64,000 nucleotides of DNA from positions 17,179-81,178 of the forward strand of contig DASXVJ010000017.1 of assembly GCA_036504335.1 (NCBI GenBank), given 5' to 3'. Position 1 is the first letter of the stretch. The number at the start of each line of letters is the position of its first letter. Source of the DNA: Thermoanaerobaculia bacterium (GTDB taxonomy: Bacteria; Acidobacteriota; Thermoanaerobaculia; UBA5066). The translations under genes were made by a program, and so were the position numbers. Under the pieces are notes generated by a model. That model did not search any database. It worked only from the letters and a program-made list of their open reading frames with translations, and was not told where the DNA came from. Shown piece by piece: positions 6,117 through 32,862 of this stretch.

Positions 6117-6148
6117 TGTATCGGGGGCGGCGGGTAGACTCCGCGGCC

Positions 6149-6586
6149 ATGAAGATCGCCCTCGGCTCGGACCACGCCGGCTTCGCGTACAAGGAGAAGA
6201 TCAAGGCCATGCTCCTCGGCCTGGGGCACGACGTGAAGGACTGCGGCACCTACACCGCGGACATGGTCGACTACCCCCTCTTCGTGCGGCCCGCGGCCGA
6301 GGCCGTGGCGCGCGGGGAGTGCGACCGCGGCATCGTCCTCGGCGGCTCCGGGAACGGCGAGGCCATCGTCGCGAACAAGGTGAAGGGGGTCCGCTGCGCG
6401 CTCTGCTGGAGCGAGGCGACCGCGAAGGCCGCCCGCGAGCACAACGACGCAAACGTGCTCTCACTGGGCGAGCGGATGATCCCCGAGGAGACCGCCCTCG
6501 CGGTCGTGCGCACCTTCCTCGAGACGCCCTTCGACCCCGCGGCGGGCGGCGGCCGCCACGCGCGGCGGATCGCGATGATCGAGTGA
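6149..6586 (+). CDS. rpiB: Ribose-5-phosphate isomerase B (RpiB/LacAB family).
   Basis: MKIALGSDHAGF...GIVLGGSGNGEAIVANKVKGVRCALC signature; 145 aa. Confidence 0.8.
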   Translation: MKIALGSDHAGFAYKEKIKAMLLGLGHDVKDCGTYTADMVDYPLFVRPAAEAVARGECDRGIVLGGSGNGEAIVANKVKGVRCALCWSEATAKAAREHNDANVLSLGERMIPEETALAVVRTFLETPFDPAAGGGRHARRIAMIE

Positions 6587-6620
6587 CGGCGACGCCGAAA
6601 TCTGCGATCCTCCGCGGCCC

Positions 6621-8255
6621 ATGATCGCGCTCTCCGGCATCAACAAGCAGTACGGCAGGCAGGTTCTGTTCGTCGACGCCTCCTTCCAGCTGAACGACGG
6701 CGAGAAGATCGGCCTCGTCGGCCCGAACGGGGCCGGCAAGACGACGATCTTCCGCCTCATCACGGGCGAGGAGCACGCCGACGACGGCGACGTGTCCGTG
6801 CCGAAAAAGCTGTCGATCGGCTACTTCAAGCAGGAGATCGACGAGATGGAGGGGCGGCCCGTCCTCGACGAGGCCATCGCGGGAAGCGGGCGCCTCGGCG
6901 ATCTCCACCACGAGCTCATCGACCTCGAGCACGCGCTCGCCGACCCGGCGCAGGCGGGCGACATGGAGAAGATCCTCGAGCGGTTCGGCGAGGTGCAGGG
7001 CGAGTACCAGCAGCGCGGCGGCTACGAGCTCGAGGCGCGCGCCCGCGAGGTTCTCCACGGCCTGGGATTCGACGACGAGCGCGTCGACGGCGACGTGGGC
7101 GCGCTCTCGGGCGGCTGGAAGATGCGCGTCGCGATGGCCAAGGTGCTCCTCGGCAGGCCCGACGTCCTCCTCATGGACGAGCCGACGAACCACCTCGACA
7201 TCGAGTCGATCCTCTGGCTGGAGGGCTACCTCAAGGGGTACCCCGGCTCGCTCCTCATGACGTGCCACGACCGGGACTTCATGAACCGCGTCGTGACGAA
7301 GGTCGTCGAGATCGACGCGGGCGAGACGATCACGTACTCCGGCAACTACGATTTCTACGAGCGCGAGCGCCTCCAGCGCGAAAGCCAGCGCGAAGCCGCG
7401 TTCGCACGGCAGCAGGCGATGCTCGCGAAGGAGAACCGCTTCATCGAGCGCTTCCAGACGCACGCCTCGAAGGCCGCCCAGGTGCAGAGCCGCGTCAAGA
7501 AGCTCGAGAAAATCGAAACGATCGAGCTGCCGAAGAAGCGCGCCGTCGTGCGTTTCGACTTCAAGGCGCCCGCGCGCTCGGGCGACGACGTCGCGGTCCT
7601 CGAGAAGCTTTCGAAGGGCTACGGCTCCAGGCGTCTCTACGACGGCTTCGACTTCCTCATCCGCCGCGGCGAGCGCTGGTGCGTGATGGGCGTGAACGGC
7701 GCCGGGAAGTCCACGCTCCTCAAGATGGTCGCGGGCATGCTGCCGCCCGACGACGGGTCGGTGCGCGTGGGCGCGAGCGTGAGGCTCGGCTACTTCTCGC
7801 AGCAGGCGCTCGACGTCCTCGACCCCGAGCTGACGGTGCTCGAGCAGGTGCAGAAGGACTTCCCCGCCGCCGGCATCGGCGTGCTCCGGGCCCTCGTCGG
7901 CGCTTTCCAGTTCTCGGGCGACGACGTGGACAAGAAGGTCCGCTTCCTCTCGGGCGGCGAGAAGTCCCGCCTCGTGATGGCCCGCATGCTGTTCGACCCG
8001 CCGAACTTCCTCGTGCTGGACGAGCCCACGAACCACCTCGACCTCGCAACGAAGGAGATGCTCGTCGACTCGCTCTCGAAGTTCGAAGGGACGATGCTCT
8101 TCGTCTCCCACGACCGCGCCTTCCTCCGCGGACTCTCGAACCGGGTCCTCGTGCTCTCCGAGAACGACTCGTCCGACCCGCCCCACGCCTACGGCGGCTC
8201 GTACGCCGAGTGGGTGTCGCGAACCGGTCACGAGGCGCCGGGCGTCCACGCATAA
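6621..8255 (+). CDS. ABC-F family ATPase (two tandem ABC domains, no TMD; EttA/Uup-like).
   Basis: Two Walker A motifs (GPNGAGKTT, GVNGAGKST), two LSGG signatures, inter-domain linker; 544 aa. Confidence 0.85.
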   Translation: MIALSGINKQYGRQVLFVDASFQLNDGEKIGLVGPNGAGKTTIFRLITGEEHADDGDVSVPKKLSIGYFKQEIDEMEGRPVLDEAIAGSGRLGDLHHELIDLEHALADPAQAGDMEKILERFGEVQGEYQQRGGYELEARAREVLHGLGFDDERVDGDVGALSGGWKMRVAMAKVLLGRPDVLLMDEPTNHLDIESILWLEGYLKGYPGSLLMTCHDRDFMNRVVTKVVEIDAGETITYSGNYDFYERERLQRESQREAAFARQQAMLAKENRFIERFQTHASKAAQVQSRVKKLEKIETIELPKKRAVVRFDFKAPARSGDDVAVLEKLSKGYGSRRLYDGFDFLIRRGERWCVMGVNGAGKSTLLKMVAGMLPPDDGSVRVGASVRLGYFSQQALDVLDPELTVLEQVQKDFPAAGIGVLRALVGAFQFSGDDVDKKVRFLSGGEKSRLVMARMLFDPPNFLVLDEPTNHLDLATKEMLVDSLSKFEGTMLFVSHDRAFLRGLSNRVLVLSENDSSDPPHAYGGSYAEWVSRTGHEAPGVHA

Positions 8256-8262
8256 TCCGCGG

Positions 8263-10059
8263 ATGCCCAAGGCGCGTTTCGCGGCCGCCCTCGCGGTCCT
8301 GGCCTGCGTCGCCCTCGCCGGCGCCGAGCGGGCGCGCTTCGGCCTCTGGACGACGTCCGACGAGCCCCCGCACCTCGCGGCCGCACGCGAGTGGCGGTAC
8401 GGCCCCGGGATGGTCTCGAACTTCGAGCACCCCGTCCTCATGAAGGTGATCGCGGGCAGCACGCTCCCCGCGGCAAAACCCGAGCTCGAGATCGACGAGA
8501 CCCGCGCCGGTCGGGCGGCGATTCCGTTCGTCCTCGCGCTCCTCGTCGTCGCGACCGGTCTTCTCGGCCGGGCCCTGGCCGGACCGGCGGCCGGCCTCGC
8601 GGCCGCCGCGGTCCTCGGGGTCGAGCCGACGTTCCGGGGCCACGGCACGCTCGTCCAGAGCGACGTCCTTCTGACGCTCTTCCTCGTCGCGGCTGCATTC
8701 GCGCTCGCGAAGGGCGCGAACGGCGATCGGCGCTGGCTCGCCGCGAGCGGCGTCCTCTACGGCCTCGCGATGGCGTCGAAGTACTCGGCATTCCCATTCC
8801 TTCTCGTATTCGCTGCCGTCGCAGTTCTTCGGCTCGGAACGAAGAGCACCGGAAGATTTTCTTTGAAGGGTAAGAGGGGCCCGGACCAGCGCCCGCCCGC
8901 ACGACGCCGCGCCTCGGAGCGGGCAGCCGGCGCACGCCGCGAGCCGCTCTCTTCACCTTCAAAGAGATCTCTTCTCTTTTCTTCCGTCTCCCGGGTCCTC
9001 GTCTTCATCGTCCTCCCCGCGCTCGCGACGCTCGCGCTCGTCCAGCTCCTCGCGTACGCGGGCACCACGGACGCCGCGTTCCGCCAGGGCCTCCGCGCAG
9101 CGTTCGAGGGGCTGCCGCAGGAGGGCGCGGTCGTGGCCCTCGCAAAGAAGTTTCCGAAGTGGATTGCGGGCTACGGCGCCGGCCTTCTCTTCGTGCAGGG
9201 GGTCGCGGGGCCCGGCGAGCGCTTCAACTACTTCTTCGGCCTCGTGCGCGGGACGGGATCGCTTCTCTACTTCCCGGTCGCGCTCGGAATCAAGCTCACG
9301 GCGGCGGCCGTCCTCGCGTCCCTCGCCGCCGTTGCCTTTGCCGTCGCGGGCTTCTTTCGCGGCCCGGTCCTTCGCCGTCTGCTCACGGCGCGGGCGGCGC
9401 TGCCCGCGGCGCTCGGAGGCGCCTACCTTCTCGCCGCGTGCGTCTCGAACGTGAACATCGGCGTCCGCCACGCTCTGCCCGCCGTGCCGTTGCTCCTCGT
9501 CGCCGCGGCCGCCGCCGGACGCGCACTTCTCGCGACGCGTCACCGGACGTTCCGCGCCCTCGCCGCCGCCGTCGTGCTCCTCGCCGCCGCGGAGTCGGCC
9601 CTCCGCCTCGGGCGCGAGATCTCCTTCGGCAACGTCCTCGTGGGGGGGCCGGCCGGCGTGCCGCCGATCCTCTCCGATTCGAACGTCGACTGGGGCCAGG
9701 AGCAGGGCCTCGTCTTCGAACGCGTGAAGCGCGGAGACCTCGGCAGGGTGGCGATCGCGGCCCTCCTCGTCGACGAGACGGGAGCGACGCGCGCCGGAGT
9801 CCTGGGCCTCGCGCTGAGGGCGGACGCTGGCGCCGACACGATCTTCTTCTCGCGCTTCCTCTGGGACCTCGCCGCGGCGATCGAGAAGAACGGCGACATG
9901 TATTCGAAATTCGTCTGGTTGCGCGGCTGGCTTCCGCCGCTGCGGCGCGGGCTCGAGGCGCGCGCGACGTCGGTCACGCCGTTCGGCGACGCCTACCTTC
10001 TCCTGCGCCTCAGGCCGGCTACGGCCGCCCCGTCGTCAGCGCCCGGCTCCATTCCGTGA
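8263..10059 (+). CDS. GT-C fold membrane glycosyltransferase (ArnT/PMT-like), with in-frame insertion of element copy B.
   Basis: Multi-TM protein with the LAMASKYSAFPF motif; residues ...LGTKSTGRFSLKGKRGPDQRPPARRRASERAAGARREPLSSPSKRSLLFSSVSRVL... are encoded by the AT-richer palindromic element at nt 8838-8997. Confidence 0.65.
   Translation: MPKARFAAALAVLACVALAGAERARFGLWTTSDEPPHLAAAREWRYGPGMVSNFEHPVLMKVIAGSTLPAAKPELEIDETRAGRAAIPFVLALLVVATGLLGRALAGPAAGLAAAAVLGVEPTFRGHGTLVQSDVLLTLFLVAAAFALAKGANGDRRWLAASGVLYGLAMASKYSAFPFLLVFAAVAVLRLGTKSTGRFSLKGKRGPDQRPPARRRASERAAGARREPLSSPSKRSLLFSSVSRVLVFIVLPALATLALVQLLAYAGTTDAAFRQGLRAAFEGLPQEGAVVALAKKFPKWIAGYGAGLLFVQGVAGPGERFNYFFGLVRGTGSLLYFPVALGIKLTAAAVLASLAAVAFAVAGFFRGPVLRRLLTARAALPAALGGAYLLAACVSNVNIGVRHALPAVPLLLVAAAAAGRALLATRHRTFRALAAAVVLLAAAESALRLGREISFGNVLVGGPAGVPPILSDSNVDWGQEQGLVFERVKRGDLGRVAIAALLVDETGATRAGVLGLALRADAGADTIFFSRFLWDLAAAIEKNGDMYSKFVWLRGWLPPLRRGLEARATSVTPFGDAYLLLRLRPATAAPSSAPGSIP
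8838..8997. repeat. Palindromic MITE-like element, copy B (in frame within GT-C gene 8263..10059).
   Basis: TIR-L ATTTTCTTTGAAGGGTAAGAGGGGC, GC-rich core, TIR-R GCCGCTCTCTTCACCTTCAAAGAGATC, then polypyrimidine tail tcttctcttttcttcc. Confidence 0.8.
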
Positions 10060-28654: not shown

Positions 28655-28700
28655 CATCAGTTGACGGGTTGCGTCCCGTGCGGCACCATCGCGCGACTGA
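28655..28700 (+). promoter_or_regulatory. Candidate promoter plus small inverted repeat upstream of the apbE-...-bfr operon.
   Basis: TTGACG (28661-28666), 17-nt spacer, CACCAT. Inverted repeat ACGGG-ttgcgt-CCCGT overlaps the spacer and is a possible repressor site. Confidence 0.3.
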
Positions 28701-28736
28701 GACTTAATCTCAATCGCTCAGGCGCCCGAGGAGACC

Positions 28737-29711
28737 ATGGAGACGCTCACCCGCCACATCGCCGTCATGGGAACAGCGCTCGCGCTGTCGGTCTCGGCGC
28801 CGACGCGCGGCACCGCGCTCGACGCGAGCGAGGCGGCGGTGCGCGCGGTCGAGGCGGCCGACGGCCTCCTCTCGACGTGGCGCGACGACACTCCCCTGGC
28901 CCGTCTGAACGCGGCGGCCCCGGGCGTCCCGCTCGAGGTCCCGGCGAAGCTCTTTCATCTCCTGAAAAGAGTCTTTGAGTGGGAGGAGAAGACCGGCCGC
29001 GCGTTCGACCCGACGGTGGCGCCCCTCGTGAGGGCATGGGGACTTCGGTCGGGAGGCCGCATCCCCGGCGCTTCGGAGCTGCTCGACGCCCGCCGCGCCA
29101 CGAGCCCTTCCCTCTTTTCATTCGAAGAGTCCTCTTCTTCCGTTTCCCGCCTCCACGGCGCGGCGGGCATCGACGAGGGCGCCTGGGGAAAGGGCTGGGC
29201 TCTCGACCGCGCGGCCGAAGCCGCGCGCGCCGCGGGAGCCACGGCGGTCGTTCTCGATCTCGGCGGCCAGATCCTCTCGTCCGGAGACGAAACCTCCGTC
29301 GCCGTAGCGCATCCTCGGGGCCGGGCGCGCACGGTCGCGACGCTCCGCCTGAAAGACGCCTCGGCCTCGACGTCCGGCAATTCCGAGCGCGGCCTGAGCG
29401 TCGAGGGCCGCCGTATCGGCCACCTTCTCGACGCGCGTACCGGAGAGCCCGCACCCGACTTCGGGTCCGTCACCGTCGTCGCGCCCGACGGGCTCACGGC
29501 CGACGTCCTCTCGACGGCGTTCTTCGTCCTCGGTCCTCAGGACGGTCTGGCTCTGTCGGAGCGCCTGAGGGCGGAAGGTGTGGCTCATGAAGCCTTGTTT
29601 TTCTTCGAAGGTGAAGAAGGGCAGGCATTGAGTGTTTCGATGTCGCCGGGGATGAAGCGCCTCGTCGCTTTTCCCCTTTCAAAGAGATCCCCTGAAGGAG
29701 TTCGCCCGTGA
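28737..29711 (+). CDS. apbE: FAD:protein FMN transferase (ApbE family flavin transferase). First gene of a 6-gene translationally coupled operon.
   Basis: RAFDPTVAPL, IDEGAWGKGWALD, GHLLDARTG and VLSTAFFVLG motifs. Element-like sequences are embedded in frame (solo arm 29105-29150; TIR pair 29598-29700). Confidence 0.8.
   Translation: METLTRHIAVMGTALALSVSAPTRGTALDASEAAVRAVEAADGLLSTWRDDTPLARLNAAAPGVPLEVPAKLFHLLKRVFEWEEKTGRAFDPTVAPLVRAWGLRSGGRIPGASELLDARRATSPSLFSFEESSSSVSRLHGAAGIDEGAWGKGWALDRAAEAARAAGATAVVLDLGGQILSSGDETSVAVAHPRGRARTVATLRLKDASASTSGNSERGLSVEGRRIGHLLDARTGEPAPDFGSVTVVAPDGLTADVLSTAFFVLGPQDGLALSERLRAEGVAHEALFFFEGEEGQALSVSMSPGMKRLVAFPLSKRSPEGVRP
29105..29150. repeat. Solo right arm of the palindromic element (copy F1), in frame within apbE.
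   Basis: GAGCCCTTCCCTCTTTTCATTCGAAGAG + tcctcttcttccgtttccc is near-identical to the right arm of copy G; no left arm nearby. Confidence 0.5.
29598..29700. repeat. Short palindromic element copy (F2) at the apbE 3' end.
   Basis: TIR-L TTTTTCTTCGAAGGTGAAGAAGGGCAGGC and TIR-R GCTTTTCCCCTTTCAAAGAGATCCCC ~45 bp apart; encodes ...ALFFFEGEEGQALSVSMSPGMKRLVAFPLSKRS in frame. Confidence 0.6.
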
Positions 29712-31084
29712 TTAGACGTACCACTCCGCGCGGCGCCGCCGCGGCCCTGTTCCTCGTTCTTTTCAGTCTTTTCTCCTTCCCCTCCCCCGCGTTCGCGGAT
29801 GAGACGCCGAAGGCGTCCGACCCGGCCGCGGAAAAGCGGCTGAAGGACCTCGAGCAGAAGCTCGACGTCGTCACGAAGGAGATCGAGGCGCTGCGTCTCG
29901 GTGAGTCGCCCTCGGCGGCTCCGCCGGCGGCGGCCGCCGCACCCGCGGCCGCCACGCCCGAGGCGACGGTCGCGCGCTTCGGCCTCGGGCCCGCCGCCGC
30001 GCGCGTCTATGCGAAGCGGGGCGTCTCGATCGGCGGGTATGGCGAGGTGCTCTATCAGGGCTTCTCGTCGTCGAAGCAGGACGGGACGGCCTCCGGCCTG
30101 ACGAACACGATCGACCTCTCGCGCGCCGTCTTCTACTTCGGCTACAAGTTCGACGACCACTTCGTCTTCAACTCGGAGGTCGAGTACGAACACGCGGTCG
30201 CCGCATCGGACAAACAGGGCGAGGTCGAGATCGAGTTCGCATACGTGGACTGGCTGAGCGCCTCGAAGGCGTTCCGCGCGCGCGCGGGCCTCATCCTCGT
30301 CCCGATGGGCTTCCTGAACGAGCTCCACGAACCGCCGACGTTCCTCGGCGCGCGCCGGAACGACGTCGAGACGCTCATCCTGCCCACGACGTGGCGCGAG
30401 CTCGGCCTCGGCGGATACGGTGAAGCCGGCCCGCTCGCGTACCGCCTCTTCTTCGTGAACGGACTGAACTCCGAGGGCTACACGGCCGAGGGAATTCGGG
30501 AGGGCCGTCAGGAAGGATCGCTCGCCAAGGCGCGCGACTTCGCCCTCACGGGCCGCCTCGACTTCGTCGGGATGAACGGCCTCGTCGCCGGCGCGTCGTT
30601 CTTCACGGGGTGTTCGGGGCAGGGCCGGCCGACGGCCTCGGGCGAGGCCGTTTGCGGGCGGACGACCGTGTGGGACGTCCACGCCGACTTCCGTTGGCGC
30701 GGCCTGTCGCTGCGCGCACTCGTCGCCGGCTCGACGATCTCCGACGCGGCCGCGCTCAGCGAGCTCAACGGCCTCTCGGGCGACGAGGGGATCGGCAGCC
30801 GCCAGCGCGGCTGGTACGCAGAGGCCGGGTTCGACGTCCTGACGCTCGTGCCGCGCACGAAGCTTTCGCTCACGCCCTTCGTCCGCTACGAGGAGTGGGA
30901 CACGCAGGCGTCGGTGCCGGACGGGTTCACCCGCAACCCGGAGAACGACGCGAGCCAGTGGACGGCCGGCGTCGTCTTCAAGCCCATCCCGCAGGTCGTG
31001 GTGAAGGTCGACGGACAATGGCGGAAGAACGCCGCGTCGACGGGCGTCAACCAGCTCAACGTCGCACTGGGGTATGAGTTTTGA
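29708..31084 (+). CDS. Outer-membrane beta-barrel porin-like protein (OprO/P-like) with an N-terminal coiled coil.
   Basis: Signal peptide ...LFLVLFSLFSFPSPAFA-DE; coiled coil AEKRLKDLEQKLDVVTKEIEALRL; alternating amphipathic beta strands; C-terminal ...LGYEF (terminal Phe); GTGA overlap with apbE. Confidence 0.6.
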   Translation: MIRRTTPRGAAAALFLVLFSLFSFPSPAFADETPKASDPAAEKRLKDLEQKLDVVTKEIEALRLGESPSAAPPAAAAAPAAATPEATVARFGLGPAAARVYAKRGVSIGGYGEVLYQGFSSSKQDGTASGLTNTIDLSRAVFYFGYKFDDHFVFNSEVEYEHAVAASDKQGEVEIEFAYVDWLSASKAFRARAGLILVPMGFLNELHEPPTFLGARRNDVETLILPTTWRELGLGGYGEAGPLAYRLFFVNGLNSEGYTAEGIREGRQEGSLAKARDFALTGRLDFVGMNGLVAGASFFTGCSGQGRPTASGEAVCGRTTVWDVHADFRWRGLSLRALVAGSTISDAAALSELNGLSGDEGIGSRQRGWYAEAGFDVLTLVPRTKLSLTPFVRYEEWDTQASVPDGFTRNPENDASQWTAGVVFKPIPQVVVKVDGQWRKNAASTGVNQLNVALGYEF

Positions 31085-31734
31085 GAAGCGAAGACGAAGA
31101 GAAGAAAGACGAGTTTCTTGGAAAGGAAGAGGGGCGTGGCCATAGCCTCGCGAGGCGAGCGCCGACGGCGCGCCTCCGCCCTTTCCCTCTTACCTTCAAA
31201 GAAATCTCTCTCTCTTTTCTCTTCGTAATCTTGCTCTCGTACCCGGTCCTCGCGAAGAGCTTCCTCACGCAGGAGGAAGCTCTTCGCCTCGCGTTTCCGA
31301 AGGGCGCGGTCGTGACGCGGAAGACGGCGTTCCTGTCCGAGGCGGACCGCGCGGAGGTCGCGCGCCGCTCGGGCGGCGCGCCGCCGCCCGGTCTCGTCGC
31401 GTACTACACCGCGACGCTGGACGGAAGGGACGCCGGGATGGCTTACTTCGACACGCACGTCGTCCGCACGCTCCCCGAGACGATCCTCGTCGCCGTCGAC
31501 CCGAAGGGCGCGATCACCCGGATCGAGGTCCTGTCCTTCTCCGAGCCGGAGGAGTACCTGCCGCGCGGGGCGTGGTACGGCCAGTTTCCCGGAAGATCGC
31601 TCGGCGACGAGCTCTCCGAGAAGAAGGGAATCCGCGCCGTGACGGGCGCCACGATCACGGTGCGCGTCACGGTCGAGGCGGCGCGCCGCGTCCTCGCGCT
31701 GGACGCGTTTCTCAAGGAGAGACCCCGCCGATGA
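31081..31734 (+). CDS. FMN-binding domain protein (NosR/RnfG/NqrC-type, likely ApbE substrate). N-terminus is supplied by element copy G.
   Basis: GIRAVTGATITVRVTVEAARRVL FMN_bind motif with the flavinylatable Thr. The first ~45 codons (MRSEDEEKKDEFLGKEEG...PFPLTFKEISLSFLF) lie inside the palindromic element. The TTG start overlaps the porin stop (TTGA). Confidence 0.7.
   Translation: MRSEDEEKKDEFLGKEEGRGHSLARRAPTARLRPFPLTFKEISLSFLFVILLSYPVLAKSFLTQEEALRLAFPKGAVVTRKTAFLSEADRAEVARRSGGAPPPGLVAYYTATLDGRDAGMAYFDTHVVRTLPETILVAVDPKGAITRIEVLSFSEPEEYLPRGAWYGQFPGRSLGDELSEKKGIRAVTGATITVRVTVEAARRVLALDAFLKERPRR
31085..31235. repeat. Palindromic MITE-like element, copy G (forms the 5' end of the FMN-binding protein gene).
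   Basis: Head gaagacgaagagaagaaagacgag + TIR-L TTTCTTGGAAAGGAAGAGGGGCGTGGCC; TIR-R GCCCTTTCCCTCTTACCTTCAAAGAAATC + tail tctctctcttttctcttcg. This is the best-preserved copy. Confidence 0.85.
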
Positions 31735-32156
31735 AGCGCTGGGCCGTCGTCCTGAACCATCTCGCGTGCCTCCTGGTCGGCCTCTCCGGCGTCGCCTACG
31801 GCGTCATGAAGTACTTCCTGTCCGGCGCGGACCCGGATTCTCGAGTCGGCCACCCGTGGCAACAGCCCATGCTGAAGGTCCACGTCCTCACGGCGCCGTT
31901 CCTGATCTTCGCGCTCGGCCTCGTCTTCAGCGGCCACGCGCTCCAGCGCTTCAAGGGCGGCGAGGACCCGGGCCGCGCGAGCGGCGCGGGCCTCCTCGGC
32001 CTCGCGGCGCCGCTCGTCCTGACGGGCCCGCTCATCCAGGTTCTCACCGGCGATGCCGCGCGGCAGTGGACGGGCTGGGCCCACGCCGCGCTCGGAGTCG
32101 TCTACGTCCTCGCGTACGCCGCGCACCTCCTCAAGAAGCGCCCGGGGGGCGCATGA
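31731..32156 (+). CDS. 4-TM His-rich membrane protein (DUF4405-like), putative b-type heme/electron-transfer subunit.
   Basis: Four hydrophobic helices with conserved His residues (HLACLL, VHVLTAPF, GHAL, AHLLKK); ATGA overlaps with both flanking genes. Confidence 0.5.
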   Translation: MKRWAVVLNHLACLLVGLSGVAYGVMKYFLSGADPDSRVGHPWQQPMLKVHVLTAPFLIFALGLVFSGHALQRFKGGEDPGRASGAGLLGLAAPLVLTGPLIQVLTGDAARQWTGWAHAALGVVYVLAYAAHLLKKRPGGA

Positions 32157-32395
32157 GCGCGCGACCTCACCCGGTCGCGGACGCGACGGCCGCTCCGCCG
32201 ATGACGGGGTGCGCCTGCACGGGGCGCTCGTTCGCCGAGGTTGAGCGACGCATGCACGGCGACCGTCTCCTGACGCTCGAGGCCGAGAGACTCACGGGGT
32301 GCGGCTCCCTCTGCACCGCGTGTCTCCCCGACCTTCGCGCATACTTGGTCCGGAAAACCGATCCGAGCCCCAAACAAGAATGGAGCGAATCATGA
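32153..32395 (+). CDS. bfd: Bacterioferritin-associated ferredoxin ([2Fe-2S] Bfd-like).
   Basis: CACTGRSF...TGCGSLCTAC matches the Bfd C-x-C...C-x2-C cluster pattern; 80 aa; immediately upstream of bfr. Confidence 0.7.
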   Translation: MSARPHPVADATAAPPMTGCACTGRSFAEVERRMHGDRLLTLEAERLTGCGSLCTACLPDLRAYLVRKTDPSPKQEWSES

Positions 32396-32862
32396 AAGGC
32401 GATCCCAAGGTCATCGAAATCCTCAACGACGTTCTCTGCGCCGAGCTCACGGCGGTCAACCAGTACTTCATCCACGGGATGATGTGCGGGAACTGGCGCT
32501 ATCAGACGCTCGCCAAGCACGGGCGCGACGAGTCCATCGACGAGATGAAGCACGCACAGAAGCTGATCGAGAGGATCCTCTACCTCGACGGCGTCCCGAA
32601 CATGCAGAAGTACATGAAGATCAACGTCGGCCAGACCGTCCCGGAGCAGCACGCCTTCGACCTCGACGTCGAGCGCGCGGCCGTCGCCCGGCTGAACGCC
32701 GGCCTCGAGGTCTGCCGGACCGCCGGCGACAACGGCTCACGCATGCTCCTCGAGGAGATCCTGAAAGAGGAGGAGGGGCACGTCGACTGGCTCGAGGCCC
32801 AGCTCCAGCAGATCGCCGACGTCGGCCTCCCGAACTACCTCGCGTTGCAGGCGGAGGATTAG
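32392..32862 (+). CDS. bfr: Bacterioferritin.
   Basis: MKGDPKVIEILNDVLCAELTAVNQYFIHGMMCGNWRY...; ferroxidase-centre Glu/His and heme-ligand Met conserved; GGAG SD 7 nt upstream. Confidence 0.9.
   Translation: MKGDPKVIEILNDVLCAELTAVNQYFIHGMMCGNWRYQTLAKHGRDESIDEMKHAQKLIERILYLDGVPNMQKYMKINVGQTVPEQHAFDLDVERAAVARLNAGLEVCRTAGDNGSRMLLEEILKEEEGHVDWLEAQLQQIADVGLPNYLALQAED

Follow-up and report, generated by a model that had tools for sequence, protein, structure and literature searches.

Four genes, encoding an ApbE-family flavin transferase, an outer-membrane porin, a secreted FMN-binding protein (FMN_bind) and a small membrane protein with four transmembrane helices (4-TM), form the conserved unit of a six-gene operon. 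On balance, this four-protein core and the palindromic operator that precedes it probably constitute a Fur-repressed, flavinylation-based periplasmic ferric-reductase module, with the Bfd-like ferredoxin and the bacterioferritin (Bfr) encoded downstream belonging to the same regulon. The operon occupies positions 28737-32862 on the plus strand of the window, that is, the whole 64-kb stretch of DNA that was analysed. When the sequence was re-read, all six ORFs and all five 4-nt overlaps claimed in the initial annotation were recovered. The features are as follows:

28661..28666, plus strand: -35-like hexamer TTGACG, putative operon promoter, read from the sequence
28698..28712, plus strand: palindromic 7-1-7 operator TGAGACTTAATCTCA, predicted Fur-family box, 39 nt before the ApbE ATG
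28737..29711, plus strand: ApbE-family FAD:protein FMN transferase, 324 aa, no signal peptide (Pfam PF02424)
29708-29711, plus strand: ApbE/porin junction, GTGA, from the sequence
29708..31084, plus strand: outer-membrane porin, 458 aa, with signal peptide, N-terminal coiled coil, 16-strand barrel and C-terminal Phe
31081-31084, plus strand: porin/FMN_bind junction, TTGA, from the sequence
31081..31734, plus strand: secreted FMN-binding protein, 217 aa from a TTG start, mature from about 31255
31642-31653, plus strand: predicted flavinylation site, motif TGAT, residues 188-191 (Thr-191 at 31651-31653)
31731-31734, plus strand: FMN_bind/4-TM junction, ATGA, from the sequence
31731..32156, plus strand: 4-TM membrane protein, 141 aa, putative di-heme b cytochrome
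31881-31883, 31935-31937, 32082-32084 and 32124-32126, plus strand: His codons of the 4-TM protein (H51, H69, H118 and H132, respectively)
32153-32156, plus strand: 4-TM/Bfd junction, ATGA, from the sequence
32153..32395, plus strand: Bfd-like [2Fe-2S] ferredoxin, 80 aa (Fer2_BFD and Cys pattern)
32392-32395, plus strand: Bfd/bacterioferritin junction, ATGA, from the sequence
32392..32862, plus strand: bacterioferritin, 156 aa (TIGR00754, Pfam Ferritin)

The 4-nt overlaps indicate a single transcription unit and possibly reflect translational coupling, but they carry no implication of stoichiometric co-expression, which had been read into them. A strict scan of the region returned no promoter and no convincing terminator. 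Since the sigma-70 scan gave no full promoter, the hexamer at 28661..28666 is only a candidate; TTGAC(G/A/C) is found at the equivalent place in close relatives. We infer that the operon genes are co-transcribed from behind the Fur-type operator.

Related loci, 85 in number, were gathered with an FMN_bind alignment as the query. The 80 genomes examined were all Acidobacteriota MAGs, assigned to Thermoanaerobaculia wherever a name was given; the host of the window is itself an uncultured soil or sediment acidobacterium. The porin gene was present in 75 of 75 loci, an ApbE gene directly upstream of it in 73 of 75, and the 4-TM gene in 77 of 85, and the four-gene module was found in about 260 species-level genomes. 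One lower-GC relative (L089) has the same four parts in a different order, with a 4TM::ApbE fusion. Of the 85 loci, L009 alone has all six genes in the order of the window, and nearly all have the four-gene core. Bfd and/or Bfr adjoin the module in only five of the 85: the window, L009, L007 and L019 have Bfd, and L013 has Bfr only. In the window and L009 these genes follow the 4-TM gene; in L007, L019 and L013 they precede ApbE, and in L007 and L019 bfd has an operator copy of its own in front. This rarity, and the occurrence on either side of the module, mark Bfd-Bfr as a lineage-specific addition, and the six-protein unit originally proposed is thus reduced to four.

The Bfd and Bfr proteins resemble the adjacent bfd and bfr products known from Pseudomonas aeruginosa. 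The window Bfd matched Fer2_BFD (PF04324) with E = 8e-4 and 20.1 bits, under the cut-off of 26; its translation has a four-Cys [2Fe-2S] pattern, as in the Pseudomonas pair, here read as C20-x-C22...C55-x2-C58, and its gene adjoins bfr. The bacterioferritin matched TIGR00754 (2.8e-55, 186.6 bits, cut-off 125.55) and Pfam Ferritin (1.6e-35), and retains the ferroxidase residues E18, E51 and H54 along with the heme ligand M52. Classic bfr genes are expressed at high iron; the pair in the window differs from that of P. aeruginosa in its predicted transcription, along with an uptake module, from behind a Fur-type operator. In the literature collection that was searched, no paper combined ApbE, flavinylation and bacterioferritin.

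All six proteins might instead form one integrated machine, in which Bfd exchanges electrons with the 4-TM cytochrome on the cytoplasmic side and wires the iron of Bfr to the flavoprotein. The bfd start overlaps the 4-TM stop (32153-32156), the gene order is identical in L009, and the conserved core supplies no cytoplasmic donor of its own. A small cytoplasmic metal-cluster partner is also hinted at in L001, where a Cys-rich protein with four CxxC motifs, differing from Bfd, is encoded directly after the 4-TM gene. Were Bfd the cytoplasmic donor of the cytochrome, bacterioferritin storage would be wired directly to periplasmic iron reduction. We consider this arrangement unlikely, however, as most modules have no Bfd, the pair lies upstream of ApbE in three of the five loci and has a separate operator in two of these, and the role of a canonical storage pair fully accounts for its presence.

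The iron link rests on the operator and on neighbouring genes. The 7-1-7 palindrome TGAGACTnAGTCTCA (window 28698-28712) is the sole match with up to one mismatch in the 64-kb window; 59 of 73 related loci have an equivalent site in the 300 nt preceding ApbE. Across 1.51 Mb, 116 matching sites were found, nearly all of them before the module, in the fur/FTR1 intergenic region of relatives, or before bfd. In L089, a near-canonical Fur box, TGAAAATGATTTTCA, occupies the equivalent place. Because the fur/FTR1 intergenic region has this palindrome too, Fur control of the module is predicted, and the promoter region carries what by sequence is a conserved Fur-family operator; the operon would then be regulated by Fur, in agreement with the link to iron that had been suggested earlier. 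Genes for Fur and the permease FTR1/EfeU lie within 8 kb of the module in 45 of 64 loci, the neighbouring regulator belonging to PF01475 with Fur models as its best NCBIfam matches; the 64-kb window itself contains no Fur, no FTR1 and no other iron transporter. A peroxide or oxidative-stress regulon was considered, with PerR as the regulator, a cytochrome resembling the superoxide oxidase CybB, and detoxification by Bfr and a CCP-like gene product. The best matches of the regulator to Fur models, the divergent FTR1/EfeU gene sharing its operator, and the near-canonical Fur, not PerR, box in L089 make this explanation highly improbable.

The 4-TM protein is probably a di-heme b cytochrome. Conservation of its histidines, set beforehand as the test by which the proposal could fall, was upheld: none of H51, H69, H118 and H132 varies in 76 species-level orthologues. 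Among 117 representatives with 28-51% identity, the first three are again invariant and H132 is conserved in at least 90%. H51 and H69 lie on TM2, and H118 and H132 on TM4. The predicted model consists of four helices (pLDDT 83) whose fold is compatible with di-heme cytochromes b, with the two His pairs predicted near opposite membrane faces. Membership of DUF4405 (PF14358), which had been put forward for checking, did not survive Pfam thresholds: hmmscan gave the window protein no Pfam match, DUF4405 being absent at E<=0.1, and the 20 of 117 relatives that matched (best E = 0.002) all scored below the 26.7-bit cut-off, so that DUF4405 is a remote relative only. The weak matches among relatives were mostly to di-heme cytochrome b families, with cytochrome b561 and DUF4405 below threshold. 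A profile search against all PDB chains gave no meaningful match. At 50% identity the family comprises about 1,300 clusters. Fusions to ApbE occur in other lineages: eight of the ten longest relatives have the form 4TM+TM5+ApbE. These fusions tie the protein to flavinylation and place its C-terminus in the cytoplasm, and the topology read from them has both termini inside.

Weak CopD matches in 11 of the 117 relatives raise the alternative of a metal-ion permease that binds metal through membrane histidines. This we regard as very doubtful, since the histidines are paired near both membrane faces, the commonest weak matches are to cytochrome families, and the protein is fused to ApbE and always linked to FMN_bind. 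In addition, the TM4 pair is 14 residues apart, a spacing known from bis-His di-heme ligation in cytochrome b and FdnI. The protein differs from the PF01292 cytochromes (cytochrome b561, FdnI, HyaC and CybB) in having H51 and H69 both on TM2, rather than one each on TM1 and TM2, and it has no above-threshold sequence match to them.

The initial annotation had described an FMN-binding protein with a target Thr motif, and both parts of this description are borne out. The protein scored 33.7 bits for FMN_bind (PF04205; cut-off 22) and contains TGAT; xGA[T/S] is retained in 70 of the 71 loci in which the position of the motif could be found. The nearest solved relative is RnfG (E = 4.4e-8). Inspection by eye showed a hydrophobic region of Sec type as well as an AxA-like cleavage site, the charged N-terminal stretch being a variable insert in the n-region of the signal peptide. 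The TTG codon is the likely gene start, because in L010, L018 and L019 the same overlapping start gives a short signal peptide of the usual kind. From the HMM match, the motif and the secretion signal, the protein is predicted to be the ApbE substrate.

The enzyme itself is clearly of the ApbE family (PF02424, residues 11-277, E = 5e-59, 200.4 bits, cut-off 25.6). A signal peptide or lipobox was looked for in it and none was found: the ORF begins 10 residues before the MGT motif, with an in-frame stop 13 codons upstream. The same type of ApbE occurs throughout the clade of the window, and a hydrophobic N-terminal segment is present in distant copies and fusions. Flavinylation of extracytoplasmic domains by ApbE, as had been proposed, is therefore not straightforward in this clade; periplasmic flavinylation is not explained, which counts against the favoured reading. 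Tat export of a pre-flavinylated FMN_bind protein was considered and rejected: close relatives have short Sec-type signal peptides, no twin-arginine motif is conserved among relatives sharing this ApbE type, and the long charged N-terminus is the variable insert. Where flavinylation can occur becomes a concrete question when, as here, the substrate is secreted and its ApbE has no signal peptide.

The earlier designation of the middle gene as a porin was confirmed by its fold. The protein has a signal peptide, an OprP-like 16-strand beta-barrel and a C-terminal aromatic residue. No Pfam or NCBIfam porin family, Porin_O_P included, matched at E<=0.1, and its profile gave no meaningful match among all PDB chains. 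It differs from the phosphate-specific porins OprP/OprO and the coiled-coil porin DcaP in sequence (14% identity, no sequence-level match) and in being encoded within a redox operon. Two other assignments were considered. A DUF3570 flavinylated outer-membrane protein was rejected for the lack of an HMM match and of a conserved [S/T]GA[S/T], the sole GAS-like string (VAGAS) varying in orthologues (VGGAF in L005, VGGSG in L008), and the mere 16 strands of the barrel make an MtrAB-like porin-flavoprotein conduit unlikely.

In the favoured ferric-reductase reading, ApbE would attach FMN to Thr-191 of the secreted flavoprotein. The 4-TM protein would reside in the inner membrane, holding two b-hemes, each between a TM2 and a TM4 histidine, with H51/H118 towards the periplasm and H69/H132 towards the cytoplasm. 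Electrons taken from the quinol pool, or from an unlinked donor in the cytoplasm, would cross the membrane through this protein and reach the flavoprotein. The dedicated OprP-like porin may admit the substrate, most likely a ferric complex, to the periplasm, where the flavoprotein would convert Fe(III) to Fe(II). Import of Fe(II) would fall to FTR1/EfeU, encoded beside the module in most relatives and, for the window, to a transporter outside it. Bfd and Bfr would act as a canonical iron-storage and mobilization pair of the same regulon, drawn into the same transcript in this lineage. Heme binding, the direction of electron flow and Fe(III) as the substrate are thus predicted features, and the comparative data support the original idea of an extracytoplasmic flavin/heme electron-transfer module linked to iron. 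In a fuller version, the module would be a hitherto unrecognized reductive iron-uptake pathway of Acidobacteriota, complete across the envelope, with the 4-TM family as a sixth class of transmembrane cytochrome associated with flavinylation; in the window clade, ApbE would flavinylate the substrate in the cytoplasm, prior to Sec export, and Bfd would have become the donor. That all of these parts hold is distinctly unlikely.

Further points count against the ferric-reductase reading. The conserved core encodes no electron donor, the window itself lacks Fur and any iron transporter, FTR1-type permeases classically partner an Fe(II) oxidase, not a reductase, and L038, L051, L052 and L054 have a CCP/MauG-like di-heme peroxidase gene inserted behind the same operator. 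This peroxidase, reminiscent of EfeB, and the adjacency of FTR1/EfeU would also suit oxidative uptake as in FtrABCD/EfeUOB, with Fe(II) oxidized for FTR1 and the FMN protein and cytochrome carrying electrons inward like FtrB/FtrD. Similarities to those systems include the neighbouring, predictedly Fur-controlled permease in relatives and a membrane electron carrier that accompanies it, as FtrD does. In contrast to them, the module has no P19, cupredoxin, multicopper oxidase, EfeO or DyP, its redox partner is a flavoprotein, and FTR1 is absent from the window. The low potential of covalently bound FMN suits it to reducing Fe(III) rather than oxidizing Fe(II). The characterized flavinylated iron systems discussed in PMC8238504 are, moreover, all reductive, and an oxidative route is improbable. 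The same parts (ApbE, a secreted FMN_bind protein and a membrane electron carrier) also occur in dissimilatory extracellular electron transfer of the Listeria FmnB/PplA type, and respiration of Fe(III) or other acceptors by such a pathway is judged very unlikely here.

The locus had been described as an arrangement not matching any known system, which is true in part. Flavinylation-linked iron assimilation (PMC8238504, Meheust et al. 2021) and DUF4405 cytochromes (PMC11334425, Huang et al. 2024) have been published, but an architecture of porin, 4-TM protein and Fur box is absent from both papers. In the former, MsrQ-like and PepSY-like flavinylation clusters were found to co-localize with iron transporters, and ferric reduction for uptake was proposed. 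Those systems share with the window an apbE gene, a secreted FMN_bind protein with [S/T]GA[S/T], and a His-ligated heme membrane protein, putative here. The window differs in its membrane component, an approximately 140-aa 4-TM family that has no Pfam model and falls outside the five published classes (NapH-like, MsrQ-like, PepSY-like, DsbD and NQR/RNF-like), and in its constant dedicated porin, its Acidobacteriota host and the signal-peptide-less ApbE of its clade. PMC8238504 makes no mention of porin, ferritin or cytochrome b. Heme b binding was shown experimentally for DUF4405 proteins encoded beside apbE and for the ferrosome protein FezC (PMC11334425). The resemblance lies in a small membrane protein with four conserved His next to apbE, and the tie of FezC to iron storage parallels Bfr; the DUF4405 example, however, has six TM helices rather than four, occurs in Proteobacteria and Firmicutes, and serves Flavodoxin_4 substrates. 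As the window protein fails the DUF4405 HMM, Pfam-based mining would miss it.

For redox chemistry outside the cytoplasm, electron transfer based on flavinylation is coming to be seen as a widespread alternative to multiheme cytochromes, and its membrane components are still being catalogued. The locus defines a compact module with two families, the putative di-heme cytochrome and the porin, that lack both a Pfam model and a solved relative. It also defines a probable Fur box for the abundant, essentially uncultured Thermoanaerobaculia of soil and sediment, which offers a handle on iron acquisition in Acidobacteriota.

Six ORFs on the + strand of the window (28737-32862) are linked by five 4-nt start/stop overlaps, and all junctions were found in the window sequence exactly as described by the initial annotation, which had read the genes as one coupled flavin/heme operon tied to iron. 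The window derives from the MAG of an uncultured member of Thermoanaerobaculia (Acidobacteriota), and the porin matches NCBI VGM13_06800 with 100% identity. The operon is flanked by genes unrelated to iron: it is preceded by an amino-acid-permease-like gene and a response regulator, and followed by Band_7, GntR, Rrf2 and a sulfate-type ABC system.

Genes and junctions of the operon in the window, with results of HMM scans
First gene, + strand: ApbE (PF02424, 5e-59)
29708-29711, + strand: overlap GTGA
Second gene, + strand: porin, without family match
31081-31084, + strand: overlap TTGA
Third gene, + strand: FMN_bind (PF04205, 33.7 bits against a cut-off of 22)
31731-31734, + strand: overlap ATGA
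Fourth gene, + strand: 4-TM protein, without family match
32153-32156, + strand: overlap ATGA
Fifth gene, + strand: Bfd-like 80-aa protein (Fer2_BFD sub-threshold, 20.1 against 26 bits; CxC...CxxC cysteines)
32392-32395, + strand: overlap ATGA
32392-32862, + strand: bacterioferritin, Bfr (TIGR00754, 186.6 bits against a cut-off of 125.55)

A scan of the FMN_bind profile over one genome per GTDB species revealed 260 relatives, the best 80 of which were all from Acidobacteriota MAGs, the named ones being Thermoanaerobaculia. Gene mapping in these 80 loci, and in five from an exact look-up, defined a conserved module consisting of the first four genes. Fur and FTR1/EfeU flank this module in the majority of its more distant copies.

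Neighbors of FMN_bind in related loci (denominators are assessable loci)
Porin, directly upstream: 75/75
ApbE, upstream of the porin: 73/75
4-TM gene, downstream: 77/85
Fur-family regulator, within 8 kb: 45/64
FTR1/EfeU permease, within 8 kb: 45/64

Of the eight loci that lack the 4-TM gene, at least three encode, in its place, another His-bearing membrane protein of 182 residues (L076:10480-11028, L078:10486-11034 and L066:10492-11040; coordinates are those of each related locus). This four-TM protein, whose histidines lie together on a single helix (THSHLP...LTHLM), has no match in Pfam or NCBIfam and may be a non-orthologous replacement. All four parts are present in a lower-GC lineage (L089, 57% GC; 6144-9452), in the order porin, FMN_bind (with an AGAT site) and a 4TM::ApbE fusion. 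A module variant without ApbE was observed in a Polarisedimenticolaceae locus (L003:3513-10027), where Fur, a porin, an FMN_bind-like protein retaining a TGAS site and the 4-TM protein are followed by two ABC_membrane+ABC_tran half-transporters; a search for the operator discussed below found no site in this locus.

The 141-aa 4-TM protein was predicted to form a four-helix membrane bundle (pLDDT 83). Histidine conservation, chosen beforehand as a test that could refute the initial reading, was complete (100%) across 76 species-level orthologues for all four residues, namely H51 and H69 in TM2 and H118 and H132 in TM4. An exhaustive profile search extended the family to 1335 cluster representatives, and among 117 representatives at only 28-51% identity, H51, H69 and H118 were invariant and H132 was at least 90% conserved. 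Eight of the ten longest members are fusions of the 4-TM unit to a fifth TM helix and ApbE, which ties the family to flavinylation. These fusions also place the 4-TM C-terminus in the cytoplasm, so that H51 and H118 face the periplasm and H69 and H132 the cytoplasm, which is how a transmembrane di-heme wire would be laid out. The protein is best described as a putative heme-binding cytochrome; a His-lined metal permease, in which the same residues would bind the metal, is a very unlikely alternative. A periplasmic loop, DP(D/F)S.V.NHPWQP (residues 34-45, window 31830-31865, including H41), is conserved nearly as well as the four membrane histidines, and may offer the flavoprotein a docking or metal site.

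The closest precedent for this protein is the DUF4405 proteins adjoining apbE, which bind heme b and to which the ferrosome protein FezC is related (Huang et al. 2024, PMC11334425); their heme binding lends credibility to the cytochrome assignment. Those proteins were mined with a Pfam model that the 4-TM family fails, and the examples come from Proteobacteria and Firmicutes and are associated with other substrates. Meheust et al. 2021 (PMC8238504) described five flavinylation-associated transmembrane electron-transfer classes, several of them linked to iron assimilation; none is the 4-TM family, and porin, ferritin and cytochrome b are not mentioned there. The concept of a flavinylation-linked system is already established; in the literature searched, no paper was found that combines ApbE, flavinylation and bacterioferritin. 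The module is compact, includes two uncharacterised families, and has a wide distribution within a poorly studied phylum.

A check of the ApbE N-terminus revealed recurring upstream pseudo-peptides (LRLSLCL, LRLRLNLNP and TETESQS), which proved to be a single DNA motif in translation, the 7-1-7 palindrome TGAGACTnAGTCTCA (extended form aTTGAGACTGAaTCTCAAt). The window copy, TGAGACTTAATCTCA (28698-28712), has one mismatch, lies 39 nt ahead of the ApbE ATG and 31 nt past a TTGACG, and is the sole good match within 64 kb. Of 116 sites in 1.51 Mb of related loci, nearly all fall either within the 300 nt preceding ApbE (59/73 loci) or in the intergenic region between fur and FTR1. A further site directly precedes bfd in L007 and L019, and in L089 a near-canonical Fur box, TGAAAATGATTTTCA, occupies the equivalent place upstream of the porin gene. 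In four loci, the operator precedes a gene inserted between FTR1 and ApbE, rather than ApbE itself:

L051:5737-7395 and L038:5267-7417 (also in L052 and L054): CCP/MauG-like protein of ~550 aa with two CxxCH motifs (CCP_MauG, 1.2e-6)

The palindrome probably represents the Thermoanaerobaculia Fur box, and from its distribution a single Fur-type regulon is predicted, which would take in the module, fur, FTR1 and bfd-bfr. The iron-responsive transcription raised by the initial annotation is, to this extent, predicted in silico from a shared, conserved operator. A PerR-type stress regulon is highly unlikely.

The best-supported reading of the operon core, with moderate confidence, is a Fur-repressed reductive iron-acquisition module. 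The porin would let ferric species in, the flavinylated periplasmic protein would reduce them with electrons brought across the inner membrane by the putative di-heme cytochrome, and Fe(II) would be taken in via FTR1 or another permease. Oxidative uptake resembling FtrABCD/EfeUOB, which would also employ an FTR1/EfeU-type permease, is unlikely. Dissimilatory electron transfer is less likely still. A porin-flavoprotein conduit like MtrAB was also considered unlikely, because a folded domain does not fit within a 16-strand barrel.

The six genes did not hold together as one unit. Bfr lies beside the module in 5/85 loci and its position varies: in the window and L009 the Bfd-Bfr pair follows the 4-TM gene, and in L007 and L019 it precedes ApbE, as does Bfr alone in L013. 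The six-gene operon therefore consists of a four-gene module and a lineage-specific, movable pair; the earlier reading is partly supported. An integrated Bfd-cytochrome-Bfr machine is unlikely, and Bfd-Bfr is interpreted as an ordinary storage pair within the same predicted regulon as the reductive module. Lying behind a predicted Fur-type operator, the window bfr (32392-32862) would be expressed when iron is scarce, opposite to the way bacterioferritin is classically regulated. In L001 (8519-9085) and L002, the slot held by Bfd in the window is occupied by a 188-aa protein that carries four CxxC motifs and matches no family; it begins at the 4-TM stop and could be a cytoplasmic metal-cluster partner.

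The ApbE of the window clade lacks a signal peptide, since its ORF starts ~10 residues ahead of the conserved MGT motif and an in-frame stop is found 13 codons upstream. In more distant copies of the module, and in the 4TM::ApbE fusions, an N-terminal hydrophobic segment is present. FMN_bind of the window clade keeps both a Sec-type signal peptide and the flavinylation Thr.

28737-28775, + strand: ApbE start without signal peptide (likewise in L007, L009-L027, L047 and L067)
31081-31254, + strand: N-terminal part of the FMN_bind ORF, with a predicted TTG start overlapping the porin stop

Ahead of its hydrophobic signal region, FMN_bind bears a charged, purine-rich, low-complexity insert of ~40 aa (EDEEKKDEFLGKEEGRG...). 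The length of this insert differs from one close relative to another, and L010, L018 and L019 lack it. Tat export as an explanation for the signal-peptide-less ApbE was rejected, the charged N-terminal stretch being this variable insert.

Two further genes were observed near the module. In several loci (L046:6438-7220 and L041:~6490-7300, both - strand), a convergent gene for a ~260-aa secreted protein of no assigned family is situated between FTR1 and the ApbE operator. In the close relative L007 (16302-17973), an MbnB_TglH_ChrH and HvfC_N gene pair, of a type that occurs in metal-binding peptide clusters, is located ~6 kb downstream of the module.
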